Positions 42,398-64,000 of a DNA stretch of 64,000 nucleotides are shown here, one piece after another. A program made the position numbers and the translations under genes. The stretch is from Candidatus Nomurabacteria bacterium (GTDB taxonomy: Bacteria; Patescibacteriota; Minisyncoccia; Phycocordibacterales; UBA9973): contig JAPLXO010000004.1 in NCBI GenBank assembly GCA_026396065.1, positions 18,387-82,386 on the forward strand, given 5' to 3'. The notes under the pieces are model-generated. The model was not told the origin of the DNA and searched no databases. It saw nothing but the letters and a program-made list of their open reading frames with translations. Within the stretch, counting starts at the first letter, position 1; each line of letters opens with the position of its first letter.

Positions 42398-45300
42398 ATG
42401 ACTATGGAAAAACCAAAATTTGATGATGTAGCTAAACGCAAGATTGCCCTTGCAGCAGAGATAGACCAAAAAATGAAAGAGTCAGAAACTCTAGAATTTT
42501 CTTTACCTACTTTAATTGGAAAAGACCATGATGACCAAGAAGAATCTCTTAAAAGTGTAAAAAAACAAATAAAGAAATTAAAAGCTGAACAAAGTAGCTT
42601 GCTCTTAGGAGATAAACAAAAAGAAGCAAAAAGAACTAGAACCTTGAATTCTCACGAAGCATTTAATGATAGTGTAATAGTAGAAAAAGAAGTGGAGCTT
42701 CTAACTCTTGAGCTTAATCTCACAAAAGATTTACCTAAAGAATTTCAAGATCTTCAGATTGAACAAAAATTATTTGCACTTCAAAACTTGAAAAAGCGTG
42801 TAGTGGACATTGTAAAATCGGAAGCAGAGACACAATATTCAGAATATTTAAAAACAAAAATTGGTGGAGTAGTATCTTCCGATAGTAAACTAAAAAACCT
42901 AGCAAATAAAATAAAAATGGGTGGAGTATCTCTTGTAGAGACTACGAAAAAAATAACAGAGTTAAAAGATTTAGAGACTGAAATTTTCAAAGAATTACGT
43001 GAGACAGAAGAAGGAGAACAATTAATCACTGAAGATCTTTCAGTTTTGTCTAATATGGCAAAAGAAAGAACATTATTTACTACTAGTAAAAATGGAGAGC
43101 AGAATCAGGTTAGAGTTAGTTATCACGCTGAATTAAATATTCAAGACCGTACACCAGAGGAAGATGAGGCTGTTTCTAATTTTAATTGGGCTGCAAACAA
43201 ATTCCGTGAAATGCCAGACGAATGGGGACAAGCAGAAGCAAAATCTAAATGGGTAAAATGGGCATATTCTGGTAACAGAGAAAAATATGAAAAAGCAAAA
43301 GCTGAATATGAGACTGCTAAAGCAGAAATTTTAAATATAAAAATAAAAAGAGAATTACCAGATGAAAAAGGTAAATCAATGCTAGAAGTTGGTATTCTTG
43401 ATAACCAAATCAAAATGGACCAGCTTATGAATACTCACCCAGAGTTTCAAAAGGAAATAGACCAGCTTGGTGCAGATGCTAGCGCTATGGGTTGGGTAAA
43501 AACTGTTTCAAGTAAAATATTTAGTAGTAAAGGATTTACAAATGTAGGACTAGCAGGATTGGGATTCGGTACTAGAATGATGGCAAAGGGTGCTGCATTT
43601 GCATCTGGCTCTACAATAATCACTGCTGTAGCTGCACCTGTAATAGGTGGAGTTCTTGGTGGTATTCGAGGAAAAATTCGCGGACAATCTACATTGGCTG
43701 AAAAGCAAATGAAGGCTCGTCATGGACAAAAAGATGAGAGTGCTGAAGCACAAAATACTGTCGATGCAAAAAATCTAGTAAAGAAATTGGAAGATTTATC
43801 TAGAAAATTGGAACAAGTTCAAAATGATCCTAATGCAGTAGTAAAAATGGTAAAAGGTGGCGACATAATTGAAATTGATGGAAAAAGAATGAAAGTAGCA
43901 AGTGTAAAATCTAATGGAGAAGTCACTCTATTTCCAGAAGATGAGCACGTATATGAAAAGAAATTGCCAACTACATATCCTAATCTTGGAACTTTGAAAG
44001 AACAAGCAGAATGGCTTTTTAACAACAAAGTTGATCTTTTTGATACAGATGGAAATAAAGAAGAGATAGAATCAGCAGATGATATATATCCATACATGGT
44101 GGAACAATTTGAAAATTCAAGTAAGGTACGAGTAGATAAAATACCAACCACATTTGGTGTAGGAGAAGATAAGACTGAGGTTGAAATGCTAGCAATCTTG
44201 GAAGCAAACCTTGTAGACCAAATTAAAAGAAGAGTGGAATACACACAAGACAAAATAACAGATGGACGTGTAAACTTTGGTGAAGCAAAATCTGCATTCA
44301 ATAATCAATTGAATTTGATCACTGGAATAAATAATGCATTGGTACATGCTGTAAGTATGGAAAAATCTGTGCGTGAAGATATTGATGCTAGATTAGCAAA
44401 ATTACTTTCTTATAAAGAAAAGCAAATAGATGAGGCGCAAGAAAAATTTATTAAGAAACAAATAAAAACAGGGATGATTGTAGGTGCTACTGCTTCCACA
44501 CTCGGTTATGGTGTACGATGGTTTGGAGAAACTATGGGCTGGTGGGGAGGTCATGCAGAAAATGCTGTAGCTGGAGCAAATGTTGTAGAAAAAGAAGAAG
44601 TTGTAAAAATTGTAAATGAAAATACTCCTGCAGATACTTCTGAAGGTTTCATGACTCGCACAGGGAAGTGGCTAGGAGAAATGTGGGATAAAATTTCTGG
44701 AGTAGAAGATGCAAAAGAAGCAAAAATACATGCAGAAGAAGCTATAAAAGAAGCTACTAAAATAAAAAATGATTCAATAGCACATGCAAATGCAGAAGCA
44801 ATTGCAAAAGTAAAAGCACAACTTCTAAAAGATTCTACTGACACTTACAATTCAAAAATTAAAGCTGTATCAGATTCTACTGATGCATATAATGCTAGTG
44901 AAGCTGGAAAAATAAAAGCTGTTGCTGATTCAACTGATACTTACAATGCAAACCTTGCAGATGAAGCACAAGCAGCTGAAATGGCAGAAAAGTTTTCTGG
45001 TATTCAGACCGGCGAAGAAAAACAAATTATTTTAAACAATTTAGACCAGAAAAATATAGATAATCTTACACCAGATCAAATAAAGAATCTTACTAACCTT
45101 TCAGGAGAAAGTGTGGCAAAACTTAATAATCTTGATAGTGCCTCTATTGATAGAATTTCAAGAATTAGTGACATTACAAAAATCAACGATGCAATAAATA
45201 ATGTCAGCGACGATCCTTTCTGGCAAAAGTTGGAAGGACTTTCAAAAGAAGCGCAAGATAAAATTTCTGATAAACTAAGTGAAAATAATGTTTTGAAAGA

Positions 45301-46807: not shown

Positions 46808-46826
46808 ATATGTTATAGTGTTTGTC

Positions 46827-48863
46827 ATGGACGAACATCTAGCAGGTCTAAATAGTTCACAAAAAGAAGCGGCTCTTCACACTGATGGGCCGCTTCTTAT
46901 TGTCGCGGGAGCAGGTGCTGGGAAAACTAAAACCATTACACATAGAATAGTAAATTTAATAAAGACTGGTATAGAGCCAAATAAAATTCTGGCTGTAACT
47001 TTTACAAATAAATCTGCAAAAGAAATGCGTGAAAGAATTTTGAATGAAATTGAGAAAAATGCCAAAGGAAATATTGAGCAAAATACTATACCTTTTGTAT
47101 CTACTTTTCACTCACTCGGTGTATATATAATCAAAGAAAATTCACGACTTTTAGGTGTCACTAGACATTTTACAATATTAGATGAAGGAGATTCACTTTC
47201 TATAATAAAAGAAGCTTTGAAAGAAAATGACTTAGACCCAAAGCAATATGAGCCAAAAAGAATGAAAGGCATTATTAGCCGTGAAAAAGGAAAGTTTACA
47301 AAAATGGAAGAGTATTTTGAAAATGCTACAGATTATCTGCCTAGAATTGTCGCACGTATTTGGAAAAGTTATGAAGCAAAAAAACTAAAAGAAAATGCAT
47401 TAGATTTTGATGATTTACTTTTAAAAGCTACGACATTATTAAAAGAAAATTTAGAAGTTCGTAAAATGTATCAAGACCGATGGAGCCATATACATATAGA
47501 TGAGTATCAGGATACAAATGAAGCTCAATATATAATGAGTAAATTACTTTCTGAAAAACACAAAAATATTTGTGTAGTGGGAGATGCTGATCAAAACATT
47601 TATTCTTGGCGTGGAGCAAATTTAAAAAATATTTTATCTTTTGAAAAAGATTATCCAAATGCAAAAATAGTATTACTGGAAGAAAATTATCGTTCCACAA
47701 AAAATATTTTAGAAGCAGCAAATACAATAATAAAGAAAAATAAATATCGTCCTGATAAAAATTTATTTACTTCAAATCCTGTCGGTGAAAAAATTTCATT
47801 ACATGAGGCTCTCGAGGAAACAGAAGAGGCGGACTTTATTGCATGTAAAATTTTAGAAATAGCAGACAGGCAAAATGTTCTTGAGAAAAGCATTGCGCAG
47901 ACTGACGAGCCGAGCACAGCAATTTCCCAGCAGGGAAATATGCGCGCTTTTCGAGAAAATATTTTGCCTGTCTGGTCAGATATTGCAATTTTGTATCGAG
48001 CAAACTTTCAATCTCGTGTACTAGAAGAAGCGATGCTACGTTACAATATTCCATATCAAGTTCTAGGCGTAAAATTTTTTGAAAGAAAAGAAATAAAAGA
48101 CACATTAGCATATTTGCGTGCAGCAATGAATCCAGAAAGCTTATCTGATATAAAAAGAATTATAAATTTCCCTGCACGTGGAATAGGCAAGACGACTTTA
48201 GCAAAACTTTTTGCTGGAGAGAAAGAAAATCTACCAATAAAAATGCAAATTAAAATTCGCGATTTTTATGAATTGTTAGAAGATACAAAAGAACAAATAC
48301 AAACTAGGACTGCATCAGAAGTAATAAAATATATAATCAAAAAATCGTGTATAGAAGATGAATTAAAAAACGGAGATGAAGAAGAATTGGAACGTCTAGA
48401 AAACATAAAAGAGCTTGCTACGCTTGCATTAAAATACGACAATTTGGAAAATGGACTCGGTGTAGAAAAGCTTATTGAGGATGCATCACTAGCCTCCGAT
48501 CAAGATTCTATAATGATTACCAATGAAAAACCAGAAAAGATTAATGCTGTTAAATTAATGACTGTTCACGCTTCAAAAGGACTGGAATTTAAATATGTTT
48601 TTGTCACAGGACTCGAAGAAGGACTTTTCCCAAATCAGCGTGATACTGAAAATAAATCAGCAGAAGATAGCGAAGAAGAGCGTAGACTTTTTTACGTAGC
48701 TATCACTCGTGCACGTGAAAAACTATTTTTATCATATGCAAACTTTAGAACTATTTTTGGTGAAAGAAGAATAAACACACCATCACAATTCATAGGAGAT
48801 ATACCAGCTGATATAATAGAAAAGGGGGATGAAGATCCAAATGTAAAAACTATTTATATATAA
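46827..48863 (+). CDS. pcrA: ATP-dependent DNA helicase, UvrD/PcrA family.
   Basis: Motif I GPLLIVAGAGAGKTKTITHRI, motif II HIHIDEYQDTN, and VHASKGLEF / YVAITRAR motifs. The ATG at 46827 is preferred over the GTG at 46818. Confidence 0.85.
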   Translation: MDEHLAGLNSSQKEAALHTDGPLLIVAGAGAGKTKTITHRIVNLIKTGIEPNKILAVTFTNKSAKEMRERILNEIEKNAKGNIEQNTIPFVSTFHSLGVYIIKENSRLLGVTRHFTILDEGDSLSIIKEALKENDLDPKQYEPKRMKGIISREKGKFTKMEEYFENATDYLPRIVARIWKSYEAKKLKENALDFDDLLLKATTLLKENLEVRKMYQDRWSHIHIDEYQDTNEAQYIMSKLLSEKHKNICVVGDADQNIYSWRGANLKNILSFEKDYPNAKIVLLEENYRSTKNILEAANTIIKKNKYRPDKNLFTSNPVGEKISLHEALEETEEADFIACKILEIADRQNVLEKSIAQTDEPSTAISQQGNMRAFRENILPVWSDIAILYRANFQSRVLEEAMLRYNIPYQVLGVKFFERKEIKDTLAYLRAAMNPESLSDIKRIINFPARGIGKTTLAKLFAGEKENLPIKMQIKIRDFYELLEDTKEQIQTRTASEVIKYIIKKSCIEDELKNGDEEELERLENIKELATLALKYDNLENGLGVEKLIEDASLASDQDSIMITNEKPEKINAVKLMTVHASKGLEFKYVFVTGLEEGLFPNQRDTENKSAEDSEEERRLFYVAITRAREKLFLSYANFRTIFGERRINTPSQFIGDIPADIIEKGDEDPNVKTIYI

Positions 48864-48864
48864 A

Positions 48865-49692
48865 ATGGAAAATAAAACAAAAATACACAAAGCAAAAAAA
48901 TCATTAGGGCAAAACTTTTTAAAATCAGTTCCTGCACTCACAGCAATAGTGAAATCTGGTGAGATTAATAATGCTGATACTATTTTAGAAATTGGTCCGG
49001 GTAAAGGAGCATTGACTGAAAAACTTTTGGAAGTTGCAGGAAAAGTTATTGCTGTAGAAAAAGATCGTGACCTTTTAGAATTTTTACAAACAAAATTTTC
49101 AGAAGAAATAAAAAATAAAAAACTGATTTTAATTAATGAAGATATTTTAGAATATAATTTAAAAATAAAAAATTACAAAATTATCGCAAATATTCCATAC
49201 AACATTACCGGAGCAATTTTGAAAAAGTTTTTAACAGATGAAAATCAACCAGAGAGAATGGTATTAATGGTGCAAAATGAAGTGGCAAAAAGAATTGTAG
49301 CCCGTGATGGAAGTGAAAGTATTTTATCAATTTCCGTAAAAGCATATGGAAACCCAAAAATTATTATGAAGGTGCCTGCACGATATTTTTCACCAGCACC
49401 AAAAGTAGACTCTGCAATTATTGCTATCACAAATATAAATAGAAATAATTTTCACCCCATCCCAACCTCCCCCTTAGCAAAGGGGGAGGGGAATTCTTTG
49501 GAAGAAAAATTCTGGAAAATAGTAAAAGCTGGCTTTGCTCATAAAAGAAAAATGTTAATGGGAAATTTAAAAGAATTTGATAAAAAAATAGATTGGCTCA
49601 GTATATTAACTAAGTTAAACATATCAATAAAATCTCGTGCAGAAGAATTGACACTAAACAATTGGCTTGAAATTACAAAAATGGTACAATAA
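48865..49692 (+). CDS. rsmA: 16S rRNA (adenine1518/1519-N6)-dimethyltransferase RsmA/KsgA, carrying an in-frame palindromic-repeat insertion.
   Basis: SLGQNFLKS, SAM-binding ILEIGPGKGALT and NIPYNIT motifs. An extra segment NFHPIPTSPLAKGEGN is encoded by a G/C hairpin repeat at 49453-49493. Confidence 0.85.
   Translation: MENKTKIHKAKKSLGQNFLKSVPALTAIVKSGEINNADTILEIGPGKGALTEKLLEVAGKVIAVEKDRDLLEFLQTKFSEEIKNKKLILINEDILEYNLKIKNYKIIANIPYNITGAILKKFLTDENQPERMVLMVQNEVAKRIVARDGSESILSISVKAYGNPKIIMKVPARYFSPAPKVDSAIIAITNINRNNFHPIPTSPLAKGEGNSLEEKFWKIVKAGFAHKRKMLMGNLKEFDKKIDWLSILTKLNISIKSRAEELTLNNWLEITKMVQ
49453..49493. repeat. Copy of the DUF559-associated palindromic mini-repeat family (caccccatcccaacctcccccttagcaaagggggaggggaa), inside the rsmA coding sequence.
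   Basis: 9-bp perfect stem ctccccctt/aagggggag at 49467-49488. The prefix cccatccc.a.c matches the unit at 32498-32542. Confidence 0.65.
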
Positions 49693-51209: not shown

Positions 51210-54107
51210 ATGATTTCTATTAATAAAATATTTAAAAATATACTTTACTCAATTCTTTTAATAAACATCGTAATGATGCCTTATTTTGCATTAATACCTG
51301 ATGCTTATGCCTTTAACTTAACAAGTGGTGAACAATCAAACATAAAAGGTATCGCTGGATATATACATTACCTAGCACCAAAAATAGTAAGACTGCCTGG
51401 ATGTAGAGACATCATAGGAGTAGGTAATGGTGCCATTTTTGCTAAAATAAAAAATTCAGCTCTTGGAAAGAAGATTACAAAAAAATTAAATGACAAAATA
51501 AAAACAACAGCATCAAGCGCCCTAAGTAAAGCTGCTGGAAAATTGGGTGTAGGTTCTAAAAGTATAAAAGTCTCTCTTATCGAGACTGATCGTCAGCTTT
51601 TGTCAGATACAGCAGACAATACAGGAGACACTGCAAAAGAAACAAAAAAAATGTCATCAAAACAGCTTTGTCTAGATGGTATTGGTAAGTTAATTGCAAA
51701 ATTACTTCTAAAGAATATGACTATCAGTATGGTGAACTGGATAAATACTGGATATGAAGGCAAGCCATCTTTTGTGCAAAATCCAGGAAAGTTTCTAGAA
51801 AAAATAGGCCAACAAGAAATATTAAAATTTGGTAATGTAGTAGCTGATGTAAAATTATTCCCATATGGAAAAGATTTTATGAGGAATCAAGCTATAGCTG
51901 CCCTTCAAAACACTTTTTCTACTAGGGCACAATCAAACCTGGCTCGGCTTATGGCAGAAGATAGTGGATATACACCAGCTCAATTTAAACTTGATTTCAG
52001 AAATGGTGGATGGGGTGCATGGACAGCCCTCACTCAATCTCCTGGTAATAATGCATTTAGTTTTAATTTAATTGCTTCAGAAGAAATAGCTAAAAAAACA
52101 AAAGGTACTACAGAAGAATACACAGCACCTGGAGTACAAGCAAGGATAAGTATTTCAGATGCACAAGGATTTTTAAATATGGATCGTTGTAAAAAAGAAT
52201 GGATGCAAGAAGAAGATACAATGAATGGCGGAACTAAACTCACTGATCCAGCCAGATATGAAACAAATCATAAAATTACAAGAGCTGAAGAAGCTAAATT
52301 CCAAGCAGAAGGAACTCCTCACACAGGAAATTATGGCCATTGTGCTGAATGGGAAACAGTCACACCTGGTATGATGGTGTCTAATGCTGCAAAAAAAACG
52401 GGTGAGTGGGCAGCAGACAATATCTGGGATGCAAAAGATTTGAATGATTCCCTTATGGTTATATTAGATGCCGTAGTAACCAAATTTACAAGTGACTTGC
52501 AAAGAAAACAAGGTTATGCTGGACTTATTGATGGTGCTGGTTCTTCATCTTCTGATGATTCAAACAACGAGGGAGACTCTTTGACTTCTTATGATCAAAC
52601 AGATAAAGATTTCTCAACAGACGAGATAGAAGGTACTTTCTTAGCAGACAATCCTACTTTCAATGTACGTACAGACATCACACAAGCAATGATAGATGAC
52701 CAGCGTACATTTGTACAAAAACTAAAAGATCAAAATAGAGAACTTTTCTCTACAATTCCTACAAATGGGATTCCATATTTCACTGGTAATTACGGACTAA
52801 TACCAATAGTACACCAGCTTGATTTTTGTATCCCAGGACCACACCCAGGATGGGAAGATGGGGCAGATACAAAACTAGAAAATTTGAAAGATGACAACAT
52901 AGTAGATGTAGGTGGTATGAATTTTATGGAAATTGGTACATTGCTTGGTGGTCAGGAAGCAGAAAGTATGAAAGGGTTGTTGGATGCTAGTATTGCAGGT
53001 AGTATGGCTGATCTTAGTGGTACACTTACACCTGTAAACTTTGATCTTATATATTCACTTGGTAATGGTGGTGTAACTCTTTCACAAGAAGAAGCAAGAA
53101 AATATTATCATCAAAAAATACAAAACATGCTAGGTTTGAATGCACATAAAGATATGGCTATTGAAACTTATGATGACACAATAAATATTATCGATACGGC
53201 ATTCCAAGGATTTTTGCAAGTCGTACACAACGTCTTTAATCCATTAGTAATGCCATCATCACTACGAGAAGCAAATACAGAATTTGAAGCATTAGATAGT
53301 TACAATAAATTATATGAAAATAATAAGACAAATATAGCTACTAAAAATAACACAATAGTGAGACTAATAGGAGTAAAAAATGCAATAGCTACAATAAATG
53401 CTGACCCAAATACACCACCAGGAAGTGCTGCTTCTGAGGCAGCATTGAAGCCTTGGATTTCAGCTTTTGCGAGACTTGCCCCAGACCTAATGACAGGTAA
53501 CGATATCGCAAAAGCAGATGGTATTGTAAAAGATATAATAGATAAAGAAAAATATATTTATAATGAATTGTTGAAAGGTTCTGTAGGTTGTGAACAAGAA
53601 TTGTCAAAACCTGCTACAGCATTAGATCCAAATAAATTACCTCAATTAGTTTTAAATGGAATAAGATTTCCTTACCCACTTCCTGTTTTATATGACTATA
53701 ACAGTATCGGACACCTTGCACCATTACCTGATCCATTAGGTTCAATCCTTTATGATGGCGTAGGAAGTTATACTCCATACACAAACACTCAAGCTTATTG
53801 GAACAAACTTAATCCATATCCAAACCATTACAATGAACCATATAATTCAATGAATGCTATTATTCCATATAATCACTATTGGACAGAATTATCTTGGGCT
53901 GCATTCAACGGTTTCCCTGGTGGACCAGGCGTAAATGAACTTTGTGGATATGTTTTAGCGTATCCAGATACGCACCTGCAACCTACACCATGTGACGGTT
54001 CTTCTGGTCCTACAATAATACACATAAGTGGAGTATTAAATGCCGATTATGCAAATGCAAGTGGTGTTACATTAGATGTACTTGAACATCAATTAGGTTT
54101 GTATTAG
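51210..54107 (+). CDS. Large secreted hypothetical protein (965 aa) with a signal peptide.
   Basis: Signal peptide IFKNILYSILLINIVMMPYFALIPDAYA. Part of the T4SS-like surface-protein block. Confidence 0.6.
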   Translation: MISINKIFKNILYSILLINIVMMPYFALIPDAYAFNLTSGEQSNIKGIAGYIHYLAPKIVRLPGCRDIIGVGNGAIFAKIKNSALGKKITKKLNDKIKTTASSALSKAAGKLGVGSKSIKVSLIETDRQLLSDTADNTGDTAKETKKMSSKQLCLDGIGKLIAKLLLKNMTISMVNWINTGYEGKPSFVQNPGKFLEKIGQQEILKFGNVVADVKLFPYGKDFMRNQAIAALQNTFSTRAQSNLARLMAEDSGYTPAQFKLDFRNGGWGAWTALTQSPGNNAFSFNLIASEEIAKKTKGTTEEYTAPGVQARISISDAQGFLNMDRCKKEWMQEEDTMNGGTKLTDPARYETNHKITRAEEAKFQAEGTPHTGNYGHCAEWETVTPGMMVSNAAKKTGEWAADNIWDAKDLNDSLMVILDAVVTKFTSDLQRKQGYAGLIDGAGSSSSDDSNNEGDSLTSYDQTDKDFSTDEIEGTFLADNPTFNVRTDITQAMIDDQRTFVQKLKDQNRELFSTIPTNGIPYFTGNYGLIPIVHQLDFCIPGPHPGWEDGADTKLENLKDDNIVDVGGMNFMEIGTLLGGQEAESMKGLLDASIAGSMADLSGTLTPVNFDLIYSLGNGGVTLSQEEARKYYHQKIQNMLGLNAHKDMAIETYDDTINIIDTAFQGFLQVVHNVFNPLVMPSSLREANTEFEALDSYNKLYENNKTNIATKNNTIVRLIGVKNAIATINADPNTPPGSAASEAALKPWISAFARLAPDLMTGNDIAKADGIVKDIIDKEKYIYNELLKGSVGCEQELSKPATALDPNKLPQLVLNGIRFPYPLPVLYDYNSIGHLAPLPDPLGSILYDGVGSYTPYTNTQAYWNKLNPYPNHYNEPYNSMNAIIPYNHYWTELSWAAFNGFPGGPGVNELCGYVLAYPDTHLQPTPCDGSSGPTIIHISGVLNADYANASGVTLDVLEHQLGLY

Positions 54108-54145: not shown

Positions 54146-57100
54146 ATGAAAAATATATATAAAAAAATAATATTAGCACTGATTGTAATAATAGTTGTAA
54201 CTCTAAGTATAAATAAAATTGCAAATGCTACTGGTGAACCATTAGTCGTTACTGATCCCGCGACTGAACAAACACCAACCACAATGAAAGTTCATGGCTC
54301 GGTAATAAATACAAATTTAGAACATCCATATCTTTGGTTTGAAGTTAGTCAAAGCCAGACAGACCTACTTAGTGGTTTAAATCCGCAGGCAGTCTATGTA
54401 AATGTTGTTGGTTTACCATCATACTCTATGATAGCACCACCAGTATACTCGATTACTCTTGGAAATATTTTTTTTAATTTAACACCTAACACAATATACT
54501 ATTTTAGATTTTGCGCATCAAATCAATACGGTACATATTGTGCAAGTCCTTTAAGTACAGCAACTCTTGTGGGTAATAGTGGTGGTGGTTCTGGTGGTTC
54601 TGGTGGTGGCAATCAAAACAATGCACCTGTAAATATTTCAAATGTAACCACATACGCACCAGCACAAAGTGTCACTGATACTTCTGCAATACTTCACGGC
54701 TCAGCAACAGTTACTGGGGGAGGTAATTCTTCTGGATATTTTCGTTATTCTAAAGTTACAATTCCTCCAATTTCATGTAATGATATTTTCGGTTCAGAAA
54801 TGGTAGCCACAAGGGAAGTGTCTCTTGCTGATTGGGTAAATGGTTCAGATTTTTATAAAAGTATACCAGACACTTCTTTCTCATCTAACAGTACTGCAAA
54901 TAATTTAGAACCAAATACAAAATATGCATATTGTGCAATAGTTTCAAATGATGCCCCAAACAACACTGGTAGACCACCTCAAATAAGGTATGGAGGAGTC
55001 CAAACATTTACTACACTTCCTTGTCCGCTAAACAATCCTACATGTCAATCAATAATTATAAATACAGATGATCCTTTTGTGGTAAATTCTTCTTCTGTAA
55101 ATCTAAACGGAAGTTATAATTCAAACAAAGCTATTAAAACTTGGTTTGAATATAAAAAAGACACAGATTCGAGCTGGATATCAACACCAAAAAATCTTAA
55201 TCAGGCTCAAAGTGCTGGTGAATATAATGCAAATTTATCTAGCTTGACAGCAAGCACACTATACAATGTTCGTGCTGCAGCAGAAGAATACACAAATGGA
55301 GTACTCGTCCCACCTATTTATTATGGTGATGTTGTAAATTTTCAAACCGCTGAACCAGATGGACCAGGAGTAATTGTCGGTGGACCAGAAGATGGTGCTA
55401 CTTATATCCCAGTTTATAATAATGATGATGGTTTGGTAAATGATATTGGTTTAGATAATGGTTCTGGATTAGACAATAATAATGGCAATGGTAACGATAA
55501 TGGTAATGGTTTAGGATCTGATAATGGTAATGGTAATGCTGGAGGTGAAAGCTCACAATGCCCTACACTTACATTGGCAAATGTTCCAAATCAAACAGTT
55601 CAAACCGGGTCAATACTTTCTTTTTCAAACTATGCTTGTGGATCAAATGGACAAGCTGTGACATATACAGCTACAGGATTACCAGCAGGCGCTACACTTA
55701 GCTCATCTGGAATATTTTCTTGGAATACAGGAGCTCTACCAATACCAGCAATAAATACTTATACATTTACAATTAATGCTAGTGCTCATGCAGTAAGTAG
55801 CACAGGTGCTACCACTACTACAATTGTTTATGCAGCACCTATTACTGTGACTGTAGATGTTGTACCAGTTCCACCAGATTGCTCTACTCTTAGAATAAAC
55901 TCAATAGAAAGCCAAACTATTTTCCTAGGTCAAACCGGTATTTTTAATATGAGTTCTTGTGGAGCAAACGGACAAACAGTAACTTATTTACCTACTAATG
56001 GTTTACCGAGTGGAGCAGTATTGACTCCAGCAGGAGCATTTTCATGGACACCATTAGCAAGTCAGATCAATGTTTACAATGTTACTATCAGTGCAAGTAC
56101 ACCTACCCAAGATCCAGTATCGATAACTGTACATATTAATGTTTCTCAATTTAATAGTTCTGGTGGAGGGGGTGGTGGAGGTCAATGTACAAGATTAGCA
56201 TTATCAGCTATAGGTATTCAGACCGTGCAAGCTGGATCTAGTTTAGCTTTCTCTGCTTATGCTTGTGGATCAAACGGAGAAACTGTCACATATCGTGCTA
56301 CAAATTTACCGAGTGGAGCCACATTCACACCAGATGGAATATTTTCTTGGAATACAGATGAAGATCAAGTAGATAGTTATGCAATTGTTATTAGCGCTGA
56401 CACTCCTTCTCAATATGCAGCACCTGTAACAGTACAAATAATAGTGACAGAAATACCTTTAGATTGTCCTGTCTTAAAAATTAATCCAATACAAACTCAA
56501 AATGTTACTGCTGGTCAAAACGTAGCTTTTTACGCAACTGTATGTGGAGATAATGGAGAAGTGGTTACTTATACTATGACTGATTTACCAGACGGAGCAG
56601 GATATAGTCAGCAAGCTGGATTATTTTTATGGACACCTACAACAAATCAAGCAAACAGTACTGGCTATAATGTAAAAGTAAATGCAAATACAAACACACA
56701 AGATGCAACAGAAAAAATAGTGCATATAAATGTTGCTCCAGCTATGAATGGTCTTGGAAATAATAATGGTAGCACAGGGGGTGACAATAGTTCACAATGC
56801 ACAACACTTACATTGGCTAATATTCCAAATCAAACTGTCCAAGCAGGATCAGGTCTATCATTTTCAGCTTATGCATGTGGATCAAATGGACAAGCTGTGA
56901 CATATACAGCTACAGGATTACCAGCAGGCGCTACACTTAGCTCATCTGGAATATTTTCTTGGAATACTACAACACAACAAGTAGGTACTTACACATTTAC
57001 AATTGGTGCCAGTGCTCATGCTGTAAATAGTATGGGAGCTAGTACCTCTACAATTATTTATGCTACACCAATCACTGTTACCATAGATGTAACACCAATC

Positions 57101-57997
57101 CCACTCGACTGCCCAATATTAAGAATTAATCCAATACAAAATCAATCTGTTGTAGTGGGTCAAACAGATGTTTTCAATGTCACTTCTTGTGGATCAAACG
57201 GAGAAACAGTCACATATTCTGCTACAGGATTACCGACAAATGCTACACTCACTCCAGCTGGATATTTTTCTTGGACACCAGTTGCAAGTCAAATTAATAT
57301 TTACAATATTACAATTAATGCAAGGACACCAAACCAAGATACAGTAACAACAAGAGTGCACATCAGTGTCACATTGCCAAGTGTGGGAATCGCTGACAAT
57401 GGAACAATAAGTGGATGTGTAGACACAAATGGAATACTTACTGATTGTATTATTACTGGAGGAGTAAATATTGATGGTACACTTACTGTGACTGTAAATG
57501 GAATAACTTATGTAAATACTGGTGGATCAAATACAAACGGAGTTACTACAGGGGGGACTACAGTAATAATATCTGTAAATGGAAATAGAACTGGAATGCT
57601 AGGAACACCGGGAACAATAGTACCAGCTATTGGTGCAGTAGCTATTCCACCTATAGATGATGTGGTGGGATATCAAGAAGGAATCGAAAATGTTTTCTAT
57701 AGACAAATAGTAGGTAATATTCCTTTTGCAAAACTGTACGGATATAGAGATGGAAATGATTTAAACGTCTTTGCTGGAATTCTTTCTCACACATTCGCAC
57801 AAATGTTTGGTTATGTGAATGGAGGCGGAAGAGAAATTCGAGTTAGTATTGCAAACATTGCTGCATACAGATTAGGATTCAAAAATGGTAGTCTAGCTGT
57901 TTATGAATATTATGACAACCATTTAACAGGTATATCTACACTTACAAGAAACTTCAAGAGTGCTTTTGACTACGAGTACTATTTCAAAAAGAAATAA
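54146..57997 (+). CDS. Giant surface protein (1283 aa) with an N-terminal TM/signal, a Gly/Ser linker and at least six repeated putative-Ig-like domains.
   Basis: Repeats of the form CGSNGQAVTYTATGLPAGATLSSSGIFSWNT, resembling He_PIG putative Ig domains. A 92-nt exact DNA repeat occurs at 55637-55728 and 56876-56967. Confidence 0.65.
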   Translation: MKNIYKKIILALIVIIVVTLSINKIANATGEPLVVTDPATEQTPTTMKVHGSVINTNLEHPYLWFEVSQSQTDLLSGLNPQAVYVNVVGLPSYSMIAPPVYSITLGNIFFNLTPNTIYYFRFCASNQYGTYCASPLSTATLVGNSGGGSGGSGGGNQNNAPVNISNVTTYAPAQSVTDTSAILHGSATVTGGGNSSGYFRYSKVTIPPISCNDIFGSEMVATREVSLADWVNGSDFYKSIPDTSFSSNSTANNLEPNTKYAYCAIVSNDAPNNTGRPPQIRYGGVQTFTTLPCPLNNPTCQSIIINTDDPFVVNSSSVNLNGSYNSNKAIKTWFEYKKDTDSSWISTPKNLNQAQSAGEYNANLSSLTASTLYNVRAAAEEYTNGVLVPPIYYGDVVNFQTAEPDGPGVIVGGPEDGATYIPVYNNDDGLVNDIGLDNGSGLDNNNGNGNDNGNGLGSDNGNGNAGGESSQCPTLTLANVPNQTVQTGSILSFSNYACGSNGQAVTYTATGLPAGATLSSSGIFSWNTGALPIPAINTYTFTINASAHAVSSTGATTTTIVYAAPITVTVDVVPVPPDCSTLRINSIESQTIFLGQTGIFNMSSCGANGQTVTYLPTNGLPSGAVLTPAGAFSWTPLASQINVYNVTISASTPTQDPVSITVHINVSQFNSSGGGGGGGQCTRLALSAIGIQTVQAGSSLAFSAYACGSNGETVTYRATNLPSGATFTPDGIFSWNTDEDQVDSYAIVISADTPSQYAAPVTVQIIVTEIPLDCPVLKINPIQTQNVTAGQNVAFYATVCGDNGEVVTYTMTDLPDGAGYSQQAGLFLWTPTTNQANSTGYNVKVNANTNTQDATEKIVHINVAPAMNGLGNNNGSTGGDNSSQCTTLTLANIPNQTVQAGSGLSFSAYACGSNGQAVTYTATGLPAGATLSSSGIFSWNTTTQQVGTYTFTIGASAHAVNSMGASTSTIIYATPITVTIDVTPIPLDCPILRINPIQNQSVVVGQTDVFNVTSCGSNGETVTYSATGLPTNATLTPAGYFSWTPVASQINIYNITINARTPNQDTVTTRVHISVTLPSVGIADNGTISGCVDTNGILTDCIITGGVNIDGTLTVTVNGITYVNTGGSNTNGVTTGGTTVIISVNGNRTGMLGTPGTIVPAIGAVAIPPIDDVVGYQEGIENVFYRQIVGNIPFAKLYGYRDGNDLNVFAGILSHTFAQMFGYVNGGGREIRVSIANIAAYRLGFKNGSLAVYEYYDNHLTGISTLTRNFKSAFDYEYYFKKK

Positions 57998-58041
57998 ATT
58001 CCTTTCAAAACATAAATATAGTATAATAGATACATAATTTA

Positions 58042-60648
58042 ATGAGAAAAAATTTTGTAGCAAAAATAGTAATATCATTTATTGCACTAGGCATTTTCTT
58101 ATTACCAATTTCTGCAACTTTTCAAAATTCTAATGGTATTCTTGCTGTAAAATCAAAAACAAATATTGCATTGGCAGATCCTTCTACTGTAGATTGGTGG
58201 TATGAATACAATACTGCTGCTGGAGTAGATACTATTGTCGGACCAAATAATAAAGCAGATTGTCTTAGTGATTATGGGCTCACTGTAGTAGGAGGGGCAT
58301 CACCAGTACGAACTTGTTTTGAATCAGCATCCACGCCTACATTAACGAGTACGCAATTAGTAACTACAGAATCTTGCCCACAAGGACAAGAGGGAACACC
58401 ACCAAACTGTAAAAAAATTATTCCAAAAAGTTATAGTTTGGGTTGTTCTTTGACAGATGGATGGGATGGAATTGGTGGATGTATTGCAGCTTTGACATAC
58501 TATGTTGTTTTCGTACCTGCAGCAGCCCTTGCAAGACTGGCTGGTTATTTTTTAGATTTCTTTGTTTATTATTCTACGAATAGCTCGTCTTATACAAATG
58601 GTTTTATTTCTACTGGTTGGGCTGTGGTACGCGATATTGCAAATATATTTTTTATAATTGCCCTTTTGTATGTGGCAATAAAAACAATATTAGGAATGGG
58701 TCATGATGGAAAGAAAATGATTGGTTATATTGTAGTCGTCGCACTTTTAATAAATTTTTCTTTATTTTTTACTCAAGTCATAATCGATGGATCAAATATC
58801 TTAGCAAAGGTATTTTACAATCACATAACAAATATAGATAAAAATGGTAAACCGCTAGATCCTAACATGGGAGCTGCTGGAGGACAAAAATCTATCTCTG
58901 TTAGTATTGTTGCAGGATTCAACCCAAAAGACATAATTGATGAAGAGTCATATCATAGTGTAGGTAGCGCAGACGGTACAGGTGGAATAGGTATGTTTAT
59001 TTTTATTACATTACTGGCTGCGGCACTTTGTGTTTATATTGCATTTATATTTTTTAGTGTTGGGCTCTTATTTGTAGGTAGAGTGGTGGCTCTTTGGATA
59101 TCTATGATTTTTTCTCCTTTAGCTTTTGCATCTTACACAATGCCTATTGATATCCCTGGATTTGGACACAAAGAATGGTGGAAAGAACTTTTGAGTAATG
59201 CATTTTTAGCACCATTATTTATATTCATGCTTTATATTATTTTACTTTTCATTGAAGGATTAAAGAAAATAACTTATGGCACAGCTGATCCAAACGCAAC
59301 TTTTTTTGATAAAGCAATGCATGTGATAATACCATTTATCATTATTGTCGTTCTTCTTATGAAAGCAAAAGAGTTGGCAATAAAATATTCTGGAGAAATG
59401 GGAGCTATGTTTGCAAAAGCTGGTGGAGCTATCAGTGGAGCAGTAGTCGGTGGTGCAATTGGTGTCGGTGCATTAGCAGCTAGATCTACTTTGGGTAGAG
59501 CAAGTAATGCACTAGGAAATTCAAAAATGATGCAGACATGGGAAGCAAAAGGTTGGGGTGGCGGTGCTGTACGAAAAATGTTTGAAAAGGGTGGAAAGGC
59601 TAGCTTTGATGTTCGTGGAACAGGACTTACTAGCGGTGTAGGTAGTGCGGCAAAAGGTGGCTTTGCAGGAGCTAAAGAAAGACAAATTGCAGAAAGGTTG
59701 AATAGAGCAAAATCTTTGGAGGCAGGAGAAAATAGTAAAGAAAAACAAGATGTTTACAAAGCACAAGCAGCTGTGAAGGAAGCAGAAGCAAATCCAAAAG
59801 TACAAGAAGAAATCCGACAAGCAAATATTGTTATTAAGAATGCAGATATTGCTATTGATGCTCAGAAAGAAAAAGTGGCAGATGCAGAGAAGAAGGTAGC
59901 AGATGCAGATAAAGATATTAAAGAAGGAGAAAATGATATTGCAGACGGAGAAAGACAGGCAAAAGTCGTAAGTGATCAACTTGGTAAACTTACTAAGGCC
60001 GACCTTGATGGTGAAAAGGGAAATGAACTAAGAGCAGAACTAGAAGCAGCTAAAAATAAAATGAAGGGTGGTCAATCTAAGAAAGATGCAGCAAGAGAAT
60101 TAAAAGAAAAACCAGGAGGTTTGTTGGAACAATTGAAAACAGAAAAAGCTGAACTAAAACGATTAGACCAAGAACAGAACGGAAATAAAGGTGAAATGGC
60201 AAATGCTCAGAAACTTATTACATCAGGTGAGGCAGATATGGCAGCAGCAGGAAATGACTCAGCAAGAAAAGCTGCAGCTCAAGCAAAAATAGATGCAGGT
60301 AAGGCGGCAATGGCACTTGCAGACGGAAACAGAGGAAAACTAAAGAGAGCAGAAAAACCAATTGAAGATGCAAAATTAGCAGAGAAAAAAGCTAAATTAA
60401 TACTGGAAACACATAATATAGAGATAAGACAAGTATATGCTACTACTACAGAGAGTGATCTTCATCAAATTATATCTGTAATTTCTGGAGAAAGTACTGA
60501 TGCAAATACTGAGTCTGCAAACAAGATAAGGGCACAGTTTAGTGGAGGTGGAAGCCACTCATCACCAACACCTGCACCAGCAGCAAAACCGACAGTATCT
60601 GCACCAGCAGCAAAAGTAACAGTAAAAGCAGATGATCATCATAAGTAA
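58042..60648 (+). CDS. Polytopic membrane protein with a long charged C-terminal coiled-coil. Candidate VirB6/TrbL-like T4SS channel component.
   Basis: Signal/TM1, then ~8 TM helices between residues ~150 and 480, then a ~390-aa hydrophilic K/E/A-rich tail. The architecture matches VirB6-like proteins of Gram-positive-type T4SS (e.g. TcpH-like). Lies near PrgI-like and VirB4 genes. Confidence 0.5.
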   Translation: MRKNFVAKIVISFIALGIFLLPISATFQNSNGILAVKSKTNIALADPSTVDWWYEYNTAAGVDTIVGPNNKADCLSDYGLTVVGGASPVRTCFESASTPTLTSTQLVTTESCPQGQEGTPPNCKKIIPKSYSLGCSLTDGWDGIGGCIAALTYYVVFVPAAALARLAGYFLDFFVYYSTNSSSYTNGFISTGWAVVRDIANIFFIIALLYVAIKTILGMGHDGKKMIGYIVVVALLINFSLFFTQVIIDGSNILAKVFYNHITNIDKNGKPLDPNMGAAGGQKSISVSIVAGFNPKDIIDEESYHSVGSADGTGGIGMFIFITLLAAALCVYIAFIFFSVGLLFVGRVVALWISMIFSPLAFASYTMPIDIPGFGHKEWWKELLSNAFLAPLFIFMLYIILLFIEGLKKITYGTADPNATFFDKAMHVIIPFIIIVVLLMKAKELAIKYSGEMGAMFAKAGGAISGAVVGGAIGVGALAARSTLGRASNALGNSKMMQTWEAKGWGGGAVRKMFEKGGKASFDVRGTGLTSGVGSAAKGGFAGAKERQIAERLNRAKSLEAGENSKEKQDVYKAQAAVKEAEANPKVQEEIRQANIVIKNADIAIDAQKEKVADAEKKVADADKDIKEGENDIADGERQAKVVSDQLGKLTKADLDGEKGNELRAELEAAKNKMKGGQSKKDAARELKEKPGGLLEQLKTEKAELKRLDQEQNGNKGEMANAQKLITSGEADMAAAGNDSARKAAAQAKIDAGKAAMALADGNRGKLKRAEKPIEDAKLAEKKAKLILETHNIEIRQVYATTTESDLHQIISVISGESTDANTESANKIRAQFSGGGSHSSPTPAPAAKPTVSAPAAKVTVKADDHHK

Positions 60649-60674
60649 AAAAGTAAACAGTAACAAACAAATTT

Positions 60675-61142
60675 ATGACAGAAGAATTAAAACAAAAAAT
60701 TAAAGAGCAATTGTTAACACTACCAAAAGACTCTCAGCAAGCATTGGAATCTTTCGATTGGATTTTAGAAACAGAAAAGATAGCAAAGGAACACAATATA
60801 CCTGAAGAAAATTCAAGTAAAATAGCCACGGAAATCGTTCTGATTTTGTGCAGATATGAATATAGTGGAGCTTTAGCTGATAATATAGCAGAAAATGTAA
60901 GTATAAATAAAAAAGAAGCAGAAGAGATTACACAAAAGATATTAAAAAGAATTTTAAAACCAATAAGTGACAAAAGAATTGAAATAATTAAACAAAACAT
61001 AAAAACAAAAATTCCTACTTGGGATAAATGGATGAAATTTGTACTGTCTGGTGGAGATTATTCTGTTTTTGGTGATAGCCAATTTTCTAAAACAATGATA
61101 GAACCAAAATTAATAAATACAAGGGGAAACCTTGTGATATAA
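60675..61142 (+). CDS. Hypothetical cytoplasmic protein (155 aa), paralogous at its N-terminus to the next gene.
   Basis: LPKDSQQALESFDW versus LPEETRQSIDNVDW in the 61150 ORF. Confidence 0.45.
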   Translation: MTEELKQKIKEQLLTLPKDSQQALESFDWILETEKIAKEHNIPEENSSKIATEIVLILCRYEYSGALADNIAENVSINKKEAEEITQKILKRILKPISDKRIEIIKQNIKTKIPTWDKWMKFVLSGGDYSVFGDSQFSKTMIEPKLINTRGNLVI

Positions 61143-61149
61143 TAAATAT

Positions 61150-61980
61150 ATGATAATGGATTTATTACAAATAAAGATCGAGAAGGCAAAGGCATTATTG
61201 CCAGAAGAAACAAGACAATCAATAGACAATGTTGATTGGAGACAAGCAATCTTAGATATAAAAACAAAAAAAGGTTTTAATTTAGACCAATTGGAAAACC
61301 TAGAAATAGAAACAGAGCTTCTTCTTTGTGGTCTTTTAGACCCAAAAGAATATCCAAAACAACTTCAAAGTAAACTTGGAATTACAGATAATGAAGCTCA
61401 AGAGTTGGTAAATGACATGAATGAACACGCTTTCAAAAAAATTCGTGATGAATTTATGAAAATTACCGATAAACAAAATACAGAATTATTAAAACACAGA
61501 GCTGAAATAGCAAAAGAAATCCCTGTAGAAAAAATTCCAATTAAAATAGTTACACCAGATCAAACACAGACAAAAGAAGATACATCCATTTTAAAAACAG
61601 CTGGAATAGAAATAACCCCGGCTTCTTTTAAGAAAGAAGTAGCTAGTGACATATCAGAAAAAAGAGATGATATGATAAAAGATTTAGAGCAACCAGAATT
61701 GATCAATAAACAAGAAGTAAAAACAAAAATAGGAATAGAAACAATAAATAAAATATTACCGACAATATCAAATTCAAAACTTTCTGGAAGCTTTCAAATA
61801 CCGACAGCAAAGACAGAGTACTCACTAGGTAATATGACAAAAAACACAGAAATAAAAGAGTTGACTCCAAATAAAAATCTAGCTGAAATGGAGATATCTA
61901 CACCAAAAGAAAACACAATCACAAGACCGAAAATACCAGGAGTTGACCCGTACTTGATGCCGATAGATGACGAAAAATAG
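61150..61980 (+). CDS. Hypothetical protein (276 aa), N-terminal paralog of the 60675 ORF.
   Basis: ORF in the T4SS-like cluster. Confidence 0.45.
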   Translation: MIMDLLQIKIEKAKALLPEETRQSIDNVDWRQAILDIKTKKGFNLDQLENLEIETELLLCGLLDPKEYPKQLQSKLGITDNEAQELVNDMNEHAFKKIRDEFMKITDKQNTELLKHRAEIAKEIPVEKIPIKIVTPDQTQTKEDTSILKTAGIEITPASFKKEVASDISEKRDDMIKDLEQPELINKQEVKTKIGIETINKILPTISNSKLSGSFQIPTAKTEYSLGNMTKNTEIKELTPNKNLAEMEISTPKENTITRPKIPGVDPYLMPIDDEK

Positions 61981-62013
61981 TAACTAGACAATAAAACCTA
62001 GAAACTAATTAAT

Positions 62014-62460
62014 ATGCAATTTAAAGTACCACAATTTTTAGATATAGAAGATAAAATATTTGGTCCATTTACCTTTAGACAATTTGCGTACTTAGCAGGA
62101 GGTGGTGGATTATGTTTTGTCATATACAGAGCATTACCTTGGTATTTTGCTATTTTTTTAATTTTACCACTTGCAGGCCTTTCTTTAATGCTAACGTTTT
62201 ATAAAATAAACAACAAGCCTTTCCTTAATGTAATAGAATCAGCTTTCAAATATGCTTTTGCAAGTAAACTCTACATTTGGAAAAGAAGAATGAAAAAGAA
62301 AGAAGATCAAGAAAAAGAAGCGCAAGTAGCGGAAGATAAAAAAATAGAAATGCGAGGTGCTACACCGCTTGGAACAAGCAGATTAAAAGATTTATCTTGG
62401 AGTTTAGATGTATTAGATGTAAAAAAGGGGAATGAAGATGAATTAAAAAACACACAATAA
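62014..62460 (+). CDS. Small two-TM membrane protein, PrgI/VirB3-like candidate.
   Basis: 148 aa. N-terminal FLDIEDKIFGPFTFRQFAYLAGGGGLCFVIY...YFAIFLILPLAGLSLMLTFY hairpin. Immediately upstream of VirB4, the usual position of VirB3/PrgI. Confidence 0.4.
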   Translation: MQFKVPQFLDIEDKIFGPFTFRQFAYLAGGGGLCFVIYRALPWYFAIFLILPLAGLSLMLTFYKINNKPFLNVIESAFKYAFASKLYIWKRRMKKKEDQEKEAQVAEDKKIEMRGATPLGTSRLKDLSWSLDVLDVKKGNEDELKNTQ

Positions 62461-62464
62461 TTAT

Positions 62465-63130
62465 ATGGCATTATCAGCAAAAGCAACTCAAGAGTTTGTA
62501 CCTATCAAGGAAGTCCGTGATGGTATTGTAGTTATGAAAGATGGTCAATTGCGAGCCATCGTTTTAGCTAATTCCACAAACCTTTCTTTAAAATCTGAAG
62601 AAGAACAAAAGGCTACAATAATGCAATTCCAGTCTTTTCTAAATACAATCGACTTTCCAATACAAATAGTAGTGCAATCTAGACGCCTAGACATAAGACC
62701 ATATTTACTTCTTTTAGAAAACAGAATGAAAGCTCAGACAGAACCATTACTTAAAATACAAACAAAGGAATATATGCAGTTCATAAGAAATTTTACTGAA
62801 ACCACAAACATAATGACAAAAAATTTCTTCATCATAGTTCCATATAGTGTGGAAAAAATGGTGACTAGTAGTAGTGGAGGAATTTTTAGTAGATTTTTTT
62901 CTAAACAAACCAAGGCAATGGAAAAGGAAGCTCAAACAAAAGATTTTGAAGAAAAAAGATCTCAGCTTGATCAGAGAATAGGTGTGATAGAGCAAGGTTT
63001 GGCACGATGCGGTATTAAATCAGTAGAACTTGGTACAGAAGAAGTGGTAGAAGTATTTTATAAAGTATTTAATCCAGGAGAAATAGAGGGTAAGATAAAT
63101 TTAAGCCAAGGAGAAGAAAAAAAGCTATAA
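62465..63130 (+). CDS. virB4: VirB4/TrbE-family N-terminal segment (221 aa) as a separate ORF, ending in a double stop TAA TAA.
   Basis: FVPIKEVRDGIVVMKDGQLRAIVLANSTNLSLKSEEEQKATIMQFQSFLNTIDFPIQIVVQSRRLD matches the conserved N-terminus of Gram-positive VirB4 homologues (TraE/PrgJ/TrsE type). Confidence 0.6.
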   Translation: MALSAKATQEFVPIKEVRDGIVVMKDGQLRAIVLANSTNLSLKSEEEQKATIMQFQSFLNTIDFPIQIVVQSRRLDIRPYLLLLENRMKAQTEPLLKIQTKEYMQFIRNFTETTNIMTKNFFIIVPYSVEKMVTSSSGGIFSRFFSKQTKAMEKEAQTKDFEEKRSQLDQRIGVIEQGLARCGIKSVELGTEEVVEVFYKVFNPGEIEGKINLSQGEEKKL

Positions 63131-63152
63131 TAAAACAAACAGTTATAAATAT

Positions 63153-64000
63153 ATGGGAATTTTAGATAAATTATTAGGAAGAAAAACTAGCGGAAAAGAT
63201 GCTGTAAAAGCATCTGTTTTACCAGTACTACCCCAAGAAATATATGAGTCAGCTGTTATGGAGCTTCAAGATATTATTGCTCCTTCAGCTTTAAAAATAG
63301 AACCAAAAGCATTAAACTTAGGGGATAAAATCGCTAGAACTTTTTTTGTCATTTCTTATCCTAGATTTCTAACAGAAAATTGGTTTTCTCCAATTATAAA
63401 CTTGGATAAAGTTTTTGATGTAGCAATTTTTATACACCCAATAGATACTTCTCTAGCTTTAAGACAATTTCAAAAGAAAGTTGCCGAAGTGCAAAGTCAG
63501 ATTAATGAACGTGAATCAAAAGGAATGGTGCGTGATCCAATGCTCGATACAGCAAACCAAGATCTCGAAGGTCTTCGAGACAGCTTGATGCAAGCACAAG
63601 AAAAAATGTTTGATGTTGGATTATACATCACAATATATGCTGATAATGACCTAGAACTTTTTAAAATTGAAAGTGAGATAAAATCTATTCTAGAATCAAA
63701 ACTTATTTATTTAAAACCAGCATTATTCCAACAAGATGATGGTTTTAAGAGTATTATTCCACTAGGCAACGATCTTTTGAGTGTTCACCAAAAATTAAAT
63801 TCAGAACCACTTTCTAGTATTTTTCCATTCGTTTCTTTCGACTTAACATCTGATAAAGGAATACTATATGGATTAAATAGACACAATTCATCTATGGTTA
63901 TTTTTGATAGATTTTCATTAGAAAATTACAATTCCGTAACTTTTGCAAAATCTGGATCTGGAAAATCTTATTGTACAAAGTTAGAAATCTTGCGTAGTTT
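63153..64000 (+). CDS. virB4: VirB4/TrbE-family conjugal-transfer ATPase, C-terminal portion (partial: Walker A reached, runs off the window).
   Basis: IFPFVSFDLTSDKGILYGLNRHNSSMVIFDRF...NSVTFAKSGSGKSY is the pre-Walker-A region plus the Walker A of VirB4. The ATG at 63153 is in the +1 frame relative to the upstream fragment. Confidence 0.75.
   Translation, partial: MGILDKLLGRKTSGKDAVKASVLPVLPQEIYESAVMELQDIIAPSALKIEPKALNLGDKIARTFFVISYPRFLTENWFSPIINLDKVFDVAIFIHPIDTSLALRQFQKKVAEVQSQINERESKGMVRDPMLDTANQDLEGLRDSLMQAQEKMFDVGLYITIYADNDLELFKIESEIKSILESKLIYLKPALFQQDDGFKSIIPLGNDLLSVHQKLNSEPLSSIFPFVSFDLTSDKGILYGLNRHNSSMVIFDRFSLENYNSVTFAKSGSGKSYCTKLEILRS

Follow-up and report, generated by a model that had tools for sequence, protein, structure and literature searches.

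VirB4 encoded by two adjacent genes in a chromosomal type IV secretion locus of a Candidatus Nomurabacteria bacterium

The window analysed here, by which we mean the whole stretch of 64,000 nucleotides (nt) taken from contig JAPLXO010000004.1, belongs to a Candidatus (Ca.) Nomurabacteria bacterium of the class Paceibacteria. At its downstream end lie two adjacent and co-oriented open reading frames, ORF1 and ORF2, which form part of a type IV secretion system (T4SS) locus and resemble consecutive portions of the ATPase VirB4 (Table 1). An earlier note, made from the letters of the window alone, had described the pair as a VirB4 split into an N-terminal fragment and a continuation reaching Walker A, and had left three explanations side by side, namely a genuine two-gene split, a frameshift pseudogene in an inactive system and an assembly indel in one of the A/T runs.

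Table 1. Features of the VirB4 gene pair, followed by those of the surrounding locus (positions in the window; aa, amino acids)
Feature	Position	Strand	Remarks
ORF1	62465..63130	+	221 aa; ATG at 62465, TAA stop at 63128-63130
ORF2	63153..>64000	+	ATG at 63153; first 282 codons inside the window, gene continues past the window end
Spacer ORF1-ORF2	63131-63152	+	22 nt, A/T-rich; opens with a second TAA at 63131-63133
A7 homopolymer	63117-63123	+	near the ORF1 3' end, 5 nt before the stop
Walker A (P-loop) AKSGSGKS	63945-63968	+	ORF2 aa 265-272
PrgI/VirB3-like small membrane protein, 148 aa	62014..62460	+	PF12666, E 1.2e-9, 39 bits against a cut-off of 27; ends 4 nt before ORF1
Gene without Pfam match, 276 aa	61150..61980	+	between the VirB6-like gene and prgI
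Gene without Pfam match, 155 aa	60675..61142	+	between the VirB6-like gene and prgI
Candidate VirB6-like protein, 868 aa, polytopic membrane protein	58042..60648	+	by position and a weak MMCAP2_0566 match
1283-aa protein	54146..57997	+	six He_PIG Ig-like repeats (E 1.8e-45); upstream of the VirB6-like gene
965-aa protein	51210..54107	+	no Pfam match; upstream of the VirB6-like gene
ksgA	48865..49692		RrnaAD, E 1.1e-53; upstream side of the locus
uvrD-like gene	46818..48863		upstream side of the locus
1469-aa ORF	42398..46807	+	no credible Pfam domain; upstream of the uvrD-like gene and ksgA

The list of open reading frames and the sequence agree with the earlier description of the junction, in which ORF1 is closed by TAA TAA and separated from ORF2 by the short spacer and a change of frame. 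Relative to ORF1, ORF2 is read in the +1 frame (an offset of 688 nt), and its frame is already open from 63105, that is, upstream of the ORF1 stop. No Shine-Dalgarno motif was found in the stretch between the two genes (63128..63152), nor at any of six consecutive T4SS genes (58016-58041, 60649-60674, 61124-61149, 61988-62013, 62439-62464 and 63127-63152), whose leaders are A/T-rich and end in ...(A)T(A)T before the ATG, in a window with a G+C content of 34%. A scan of 57500..64000 gave no promoter-like or terminator-like site on the plus strand between ORF1 and ORF2, and the counts of such sites over the scanned region were at or below shuffled expectation.

ORF1 carries the VirB4 N-terminal motif that the earlier note had read in it (IKEVRDGIVVMKDGQLRAIVLANSTNLSLKSEEEQKATIMQFQSFLNTIDFPIQIVVQSRRLD). 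Among the NCBIfam profiles, its residues 9-125 correspond to positions 2-119 of the 752-position CD1110-family VirB4 model NF045971 (E 1.9e-6) and its residues 6-128 to positions 102-236 of the VirB4 model of mycoplasma integrative and conjugative elements; it also matches the VirB4 model NF045975 (E 3e-12), and its residues 4-190 match positions 4-181 of TIGR00929 (E 1e-4). The precomputed annotation of an identical database protein (P0001), like that of all of the best 120 homologues, assigns the family PF26593, "TraC-like". Searching the PDB by sequence with ORF1 and with ORF2 gave chance-level matches only. An AlphaFold2 model of ORF1, built on an alignment of 85 sequences, reached a predicted local distance difference test (pLDDT) score of 90 and a predicted template modelling (TM) score of 0.80. 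When this model was compared with the PDB by Foldseek, the best 14 matches were all chains of TrwK/VirB4 from the R388 T4SS (8RTD, 8RTB, 7O41-7O43), with probabilities of 0.99-1.00 and query TM scores of 0.38-0.53, and the later matches were noise. Conservation among the orthologues of ORF1 extends through ...VFYKVFNPGE.EGKI, after which a short variable tail follows, and the tail of ORF1 past residue ~205 is likewise variable and modelled with low confidence. On these comparisons ORF1 appears to be a TrsD-like or TraC-like protein equal to the first ~210 residues of canonical VirB4.

ORF2 takes up the profile where ORF1 leaves it. Its residues 35-280 cover positions 184-437 of NF045971 (E 3.8e-43), and the Walker A motif that the earlier note had placed in the downstream frame is present there as AKSGSGKS. 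A local Pfam scan of ORF2 gave no match. The orthologue in a related genome (L001; 612 aa, 89% identical) scores 379 bits against the NF045971 cut-off of 325, with residues 34-576 aligned to positions 183-734 of the 752, and positions 1-182 are absent from ORF2 orthologues. A common start peptide, M-(G/S)-I-(F/L)-D-K-L-(F/L)-G-K-K, opens the orthologues, and ORF2 itself begins with the conserved MGILDKLLG. By homology, ORF2 is predicted to be a short-form VirB4 of ~615 aa in which the remainder of the N-terminal domain is followed by the complete P-loop ATPase domain.

The two parts were also compared with a fused homologue, P0270 (797 aa), that holds both in one chain. Residues 1-213 of P0270 align with ORF1 1-208 (36% identity, E 4e-44) and residues 225-474 with ORF2 33-282 (54% identity, E 7e-105). 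These matches, like those to the VirB4 profiles, lie far beyond chance. The earlier reading of the pair as an N-terminal fragment followed by a Walker A continuation is borne out by these alignments and by the profile mappings, which are consecutive; the overlap that the note had named as grounds for abandoning it does not occur, the two parts being colinear and non-overlapping on the VirB4 profiles as on P0270. ORF1 and ORF2 thus cover, in the same order, the whole of the canonical single-chain VirB4 as represented by NF045971, by TrwK of R388 and by the fused proteins of 775-807 aa from Ca. Colwellbacteria. Whereas VirB4 in its single-polypeptide form measures ~750-800 aa, the window holds two genes parted by a TAA TAA stop and 22 nt, and the ORF1 tail together with a leader of ~32 aa in ORF2 takes the place of the ~12-aa link of the fused form (P0270 residues 214-224). 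A model of the fused protein, built on an alignment of database proteins only and of moderate confidence (pLDDT 74), falls to pLDDT 58-59 over residues 211-230, a stretch flanked by better-predicted modules whose order of secondary-structure elements matches the ORF1 model. In the models, then, the split junction coincides with what is predicted to be a soft linker.

Over 7,800 homologues came out of a search of 5.8 billion proteins with ORF1. The top 120 of them (72-100% identity) are all stand-alone proteins of 211-224 aa, one being identical to ORF1, and those that bear names are assigned to Ca. Nomurabacteria, Paceibacterota or Patescibacteria. When 1.84 billion representatives of clusters at 50% identity were scanned in full with HMMER, 2,385 matches resulted, and among the best 150 of these an ORF2-like continuation is present in P0270 only, the other 149 being without one. 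We then measured the junction in 83 related loci, 80 of which came from species-representative genomes of Ca. Nomurabacteria/Paceibacteria and three from exact look-ups. All 83 have the two-gene arrangement, so that the comparison with related genomes proposed in the earlier note gives the same split throughout. The ORF1 homologues in these loci are 212-222 aa long and always end in a stop of their own (TAA in 65, TAG in 15 and TGA in three), while the ORF2 homologues start from their own ATG and, where complete, nearly always measure 609-636 aa (median 616). Spacer length varies between -8 nt, an overlap of 8 nt, and 153 nt, with 4 nt as the commonest length (18 loci), and ORF2 homologues lie in relative frame 0, +1 or +2 in 23, 36 and 24 loci, respectively. 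A single frameshift or homopolymer error cannot give such a pattern of frames and spacers. Both genes, moreover, are clearly under strong purifying selection, the ratio of nonsynonymous to synonymous substitution rates (dN/dS, Nei-Gojobori) against the nearest relatives being 0.05-0.11 for ORF1 and 0.05-0.07 for ORF2, figures that are rough because dS exceeds 1 and is near saturation.

In the light of these data the window almost certainly holds a chromosomal T4SS locus in which two neighbouring genes of the same orientation naturally encode VirB4. Among the three explanations in the earlier note it is the genuine two-gene split that stands, and the 83 loci, the 120 homologues and the signs of selection exclude both the pseudogene and the assembly indel as its cause.

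Several observations on the related proteins and loci are recorded here in their own right. About a quarter of the best 150 ORF1-like representatives are 270-443 aa long, with N- or C-terminal extensions (P0151, P0168, P0226, P0231, P0259 and others); they were considered as truncated fusions and rejected, as none has an ORF2-like part. In one locus (L031) the ORF2 homologue is open for 286 codons only, a sign that this metagenome-assembled genome contains a frameshift, a pseudogene or an assembly error there, and in another (L016) the automatic start call lies too far downstream, an earlier start, ATG GGA ATT CTT GAT (MGILD), being visible. The spacers of many relatives hold inserted palindromic or repeat elements (L019, L025, L046 and L063; L040 and L055; L010, L015, L047, L074 and L081; L036, L067, L070 and L072). 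These include a perfect hairpin of ~36 nt (GCTAGGCAAGACCTAACATGTTAGGTCTTGCCTAGC), inserts of ~120 nt with the ends CCCGTTAGAAGC...GCTTCTAACGGG, inverted repeats of 110-153 nt rich in AAGT/ACTT, and short tandem GCCTAGA or AGCTAAA repeats. From their sequences the inserts look like small mobile elements or elements of the repetitive extragenic palindromic (REP) type, and their presence implies that the junction tolerates insertions.

Taken alone, the sequence of the window makes the suspicion of an indel mechanically reasonable. The A7 run exists, and when one A is removed from it in silico the frames of ORF1 and ORF2 are joined in this genome, the product carrying an unconserved linker, SYNKTNSYKY; when one A is added, translation meets a stop at aa 233. 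Among the relatives, however, the A7 run is absent as a conserved feature. That part of the earlier note which pointed to an A/T run able to fuse the frames is therefore correct, whereas the indel as the cause of the split is excluded by the relatives.

Programmed recoding, in which slippage or frameshifting at A7 would yield some full-length fused VirB4 beside the two separate proteins, has to be considered because the ORF2 frame is open from a point upstream of the ORF1 stop and an mRNA lacking one A would encode the fusion. We regard it as very improbable. The 83 loci conserve neither the A-run nor the relation of the frames, and their spacers extend to 153 nt, some of them with palindromic inserts. 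A ribosomal -1 slip, furthermore, would land in the wrong frame, and one inserted A leads to the premature stop. A run of seven is also shorter than those usually tied to efficient slippage.

A frameshift pseudogene would mean that a recent indel broke a continuous virB4 in this genome and left the T4SS inactive. The restoration of a single frame by loss of one A would fit such an event, as would the existence of fused VirB4 genes in another patescibacterial lineage, but the chance that it took place is in our judgement close to nil. The split occurs in every related locus, with varied spacers and in all three frames, and in the 23 loci with both genes in frame it is stop codons only that separate them. 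ORF2 orthologues keep a conserved N-terminus of their own, and dN/dS values of about 0.05-0.1 apply to both parts. With identities to the window's proteins of no more than 36% (ORF1) and 54% (ORF2), the fused forms are no recent relatives.

Hardly more credible is an assembly or sequencing indel in an A/T homopolymer that hides a continuous gene. It is the position of A7 just ahead of the stop, together with the effect of the one-nucleotide deletion, that recommends it, and an artefact does mimic a short VirB4 elsewhere, namely in the locus L085, where a gap of Ns leads to a call of 600 aa. Against this, the same two genes recur in independent assemblies from many projects and platforms, mostly without a comparable A-run at the junction; ORF1 is closed by two consecutive TAA codons, the ATG of ORF2 opens a conserved start peptide, and the linker of the hypothetical fusion is unconserved. 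That ORF1 is a leftover copy of a VirB4 N-terminus in front of a complete VirB4 in ORF2 can be dismissed, for although an ORF2 orthologue on its own passes the CD1110 cut-off, ORF1 and ORF2 are consecutive on every VirB4 profile and on the fused homologue, ORF2 orthologues are without profile positions 1-182, and ORF1 is strongly conserved.

Some points weigh against the interpretation of the pair as a natural two-gene VirB4, or at least against parts of it. On the TrsD/TraD model NF041427, ORF1 aligns over residues 8-132 with profile positions 15-149 of 201 (E 6.8e-7), yet its 29.3 bits stay below the curated cut-off of 200, whereas TrsD of plasmid pSK41 scores 227.6 bits; in a direct BLASTP comparison ORF1 matches TrsD of pSK41 marginally (E 0.004 over 41 aa). 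Because of these two values the homology of ORF1 to TrsD proper has to be taken as remote, and by its sequence ORF1 would count as a distant relative of the TrsD/TraD family but as no member by the curated threshold. A local Pfam-A scan of ORF1 gave no family at E <= 0.1, in a copy that probably lacks the PF26593 model. To these points are to be added the nearly saturated dS, which blurs the selection estimates; the end of the window at residue 282 of ORF2, so that the C-terminal half of the ATPase is known from orthologues alone; the A7 run, which was read in this genome from the assembly only; and the binding of the ORF1 product to the ORF2 product or to PrgI, which we infer.

A two-gene VirB4 of this kind has known counterparts. 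In the staphylococcal conjugative plasmids pSK41/pGO1 the genes follow in the same order, trsC (VirB3-like), trsD (227 aa) and trsE (672 aa, DUF87), to be compared with PrgI, ORF1 (221 aa) and ORF2 (~615 aa) here, and the spacer measures 14 nt in pSK41 against 22 nt in the window. The split point is shared as well. TrsE residues 30-611 correspond to positions 183-730 of the CD1110 profile, and in both ATPases the match starts at position 183, preceded by a leader of ~30 aa, from which it follows that VirB4 is divided at one and the same point in the pSK41 and the patescibacterial systems, behind the same N-terminal module. Unlike in pSK41/pGO1, the locus described here is chromosomal and lies beside housekeeping genes rather than on a conjugative plasmid. 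TraD and TraE of pIP501 form, with TrsD and TrsE, the "pGO1 subclass" of the MPF-FATA T4SS. The earlier note had proposed pIP501 TraE as a full-length comparator, a choice that fails, given that its subclass is itself split (as seen from the NCBIfam TrsD/TraD family and from TrsD and TrsE of pSK41).

Within the Patescibacteria the arrangement is already known, and the pair is an ordinary instance of the neighbouring TrsD homologue and virB4 genes published in a recent survey (Quinonero-Coronel et al. 2025, PMC12102498). The survey gives TrsD homologues as the most abundant T4SS component in Patescibacteria, with 1,664 of 2,272 adjoining virB4, lists the homologue of Southlakia epibionticum as essential, and places the T4SS locus often near dnaA, rnpA, rpmH and ksgA. 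Its passages on TrsD treat the protein as remotely homologous to the N-terminus of VirB4 and assign it no function (PMC12102498). The T4SS of that survey, as its text presents it, and the one in the window share the TrsD-like gene beside virB4, the PrgI/VirB3 gene upstream, a candidate VirB6-like gene nearby, the chromosomal setting and the proximity to ksgA. The colinear mapping, the split point shared with pSK41 and the fused clade of Ca. Colwellbacteria are refinements of that published picture. For the homology of TrsD to the VirB4 N-terminus the survey cites Guglielmini et al. 2014 (PMC4027160), whose main text does not name TrsD; the homology to VirB4 accordingly rests on our own profile mappings. 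Modules of the system are likewise shuffled between one and several genes where VirB3-VirB4 fusions exist, as in some conjugative systems (PMC12102498), with the difference that there the direction is the opposite one, fusion instead of fission, and that prgI is separate here; the survey's passage on such fusions reports none found in Patescibacteria.

The fused patescibacterial VirB4 forms a clade of some size. Among the best matches to P0270, 118 of 120 are 775-807 aa long and combine TraC-like and ATPase domains, and the named members of these best 120 are mostly Ca. Colwellbacteria. Synteny in a fused locus of this group (L086) is that of the split loci. In a crude neighbour-joining tree, which carries no support values and is rooted on the very distant pSK41 TrsD, the fused N-terminal modules form one clade that is nested seven nodes deep among ~100 split modules. 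The similarity of ORF1 to the N-terminus of the fused patescibacterial VirB4 (36% identity) is much greater than that to pSK41 TrsD, and this, together with the nested clade, hints that the fused state in Ca. Colwellbacteria may be secondary. That the split of the Patescibacteria arose, or was reversed, independently of the one in the pGO1/pIP501-type plasmids of Firmicutes, at the same linker between the modules, with Ca. Colwellbacteria as a case of re-fusion, is a tentative proposal that we consider somewhat less probable than its contrary.

Two members of the fused clade deserve separate mention. A VirB4 of 600 aa (P0292; L085 1282..3470), one of the two short exceptions among the best 120 matches to P0270, was examined as a recent independent split and rejected, a scaffold gap of Ns interrupting the gene; both residues 1-89 and residues 193-796 of the fused protein are present around the gap. 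P0218 (224 aa), apparently a stand-alone N-terminal module, groups inside the otherwise fused clade and could be either a truncated gene call or a secondary split.

The genes around the pair conform to a T4SS locus. PrgI is annotated at the same position in L001, L003, L085 and L086. Where the window has the genes of 155 and 276 aa, relatives have a single gene of 269-326 aa. The 868-aa protein upstream of these has no Pfam match and matches the mycoplasma-type conjugal transfer family MMCAP2_0566 weakly (E 2.2e-5, 23.9 bits against a cut-off of 90); the genes that occupy its position in relatives encode proteins of 723 aa (L001), 813 aa (L003) and, TrbL_3-like, 509 aa (L086). We take it as a candidate VirB6-like channel subunit. 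Its C-terminus is a charged tail of ~330 aa, rich in Lys, Glu and Ala, with a weak SMC-like coiled-coil match (E 0.033) and a Pro/Ala-rich end. Further upstream, the 965-aa and 1283-aa proteins are possibly T4SS-associated surface adhesins, and in L001 a He_PIG protein of 1077 aa stands at the position of the latter. The order in relatives (L001, L003) is a large membrane protein, a gene of ~270-330 aa, PrgI, a TraC-like protein (PF26593) and a P-loop_TraG ATPase of 612-615 aa. Downstream of the ATPase, relatives have a 326-aa gene, T4SS_pilin/NLPC_P60, a gene of ~450 aa and then an R3H protein, yidC, rnpA, rpmH and dnaA. Neither a relaxase nor a coupling protein turned up in that part of the locus which we examined.

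As to how the divided protein might work, the two genes are probably co-transcribed, each being translated independently from its own ATG, and their products would associate non-covalently to give a complete VirB4 protomer. The N-terminal domains of canonical VirB4 join the protomers of the dimer, are embedded in the membrane and contact VirB3 and VirB8 (PMC12857230). By analogy with the canonical protein, the TrsD-like module may supply the membrane-proximal part that docks the ATPase on PrgI and the membrane channel, and the assembled ATPase would then energise the T4SS. Such a system can be essential for epibiotic growth, as transposon sequencing (Tn-seq) indicated for the T4SS locus of Southlakia epibionticum, the one patescibacterium tested (Wang et al. 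2023, PMC10633639).

For annotation the finding means that the product of the 221-aa gene is better called the TrsD-like N-terminal subunit of VirB4 than a "hypothetical protein", and that neither a pseudogene flag for the pair nor an inactive score for the T4SS is warranted. It adds a further machine ATPase to those that are divided at a linker between domains, and the natural split offers a handle on the role of the N-terminal module of VirB4, both in docking on VirB3 and the membrane and in the pairing of protomers. If the splits in Patescibacteria and in Firmicutes plasmids did arise independently, the first ~210 residues of VirB4 would be an autonomous subunit, repeatedly detached and re-attached in evolution.

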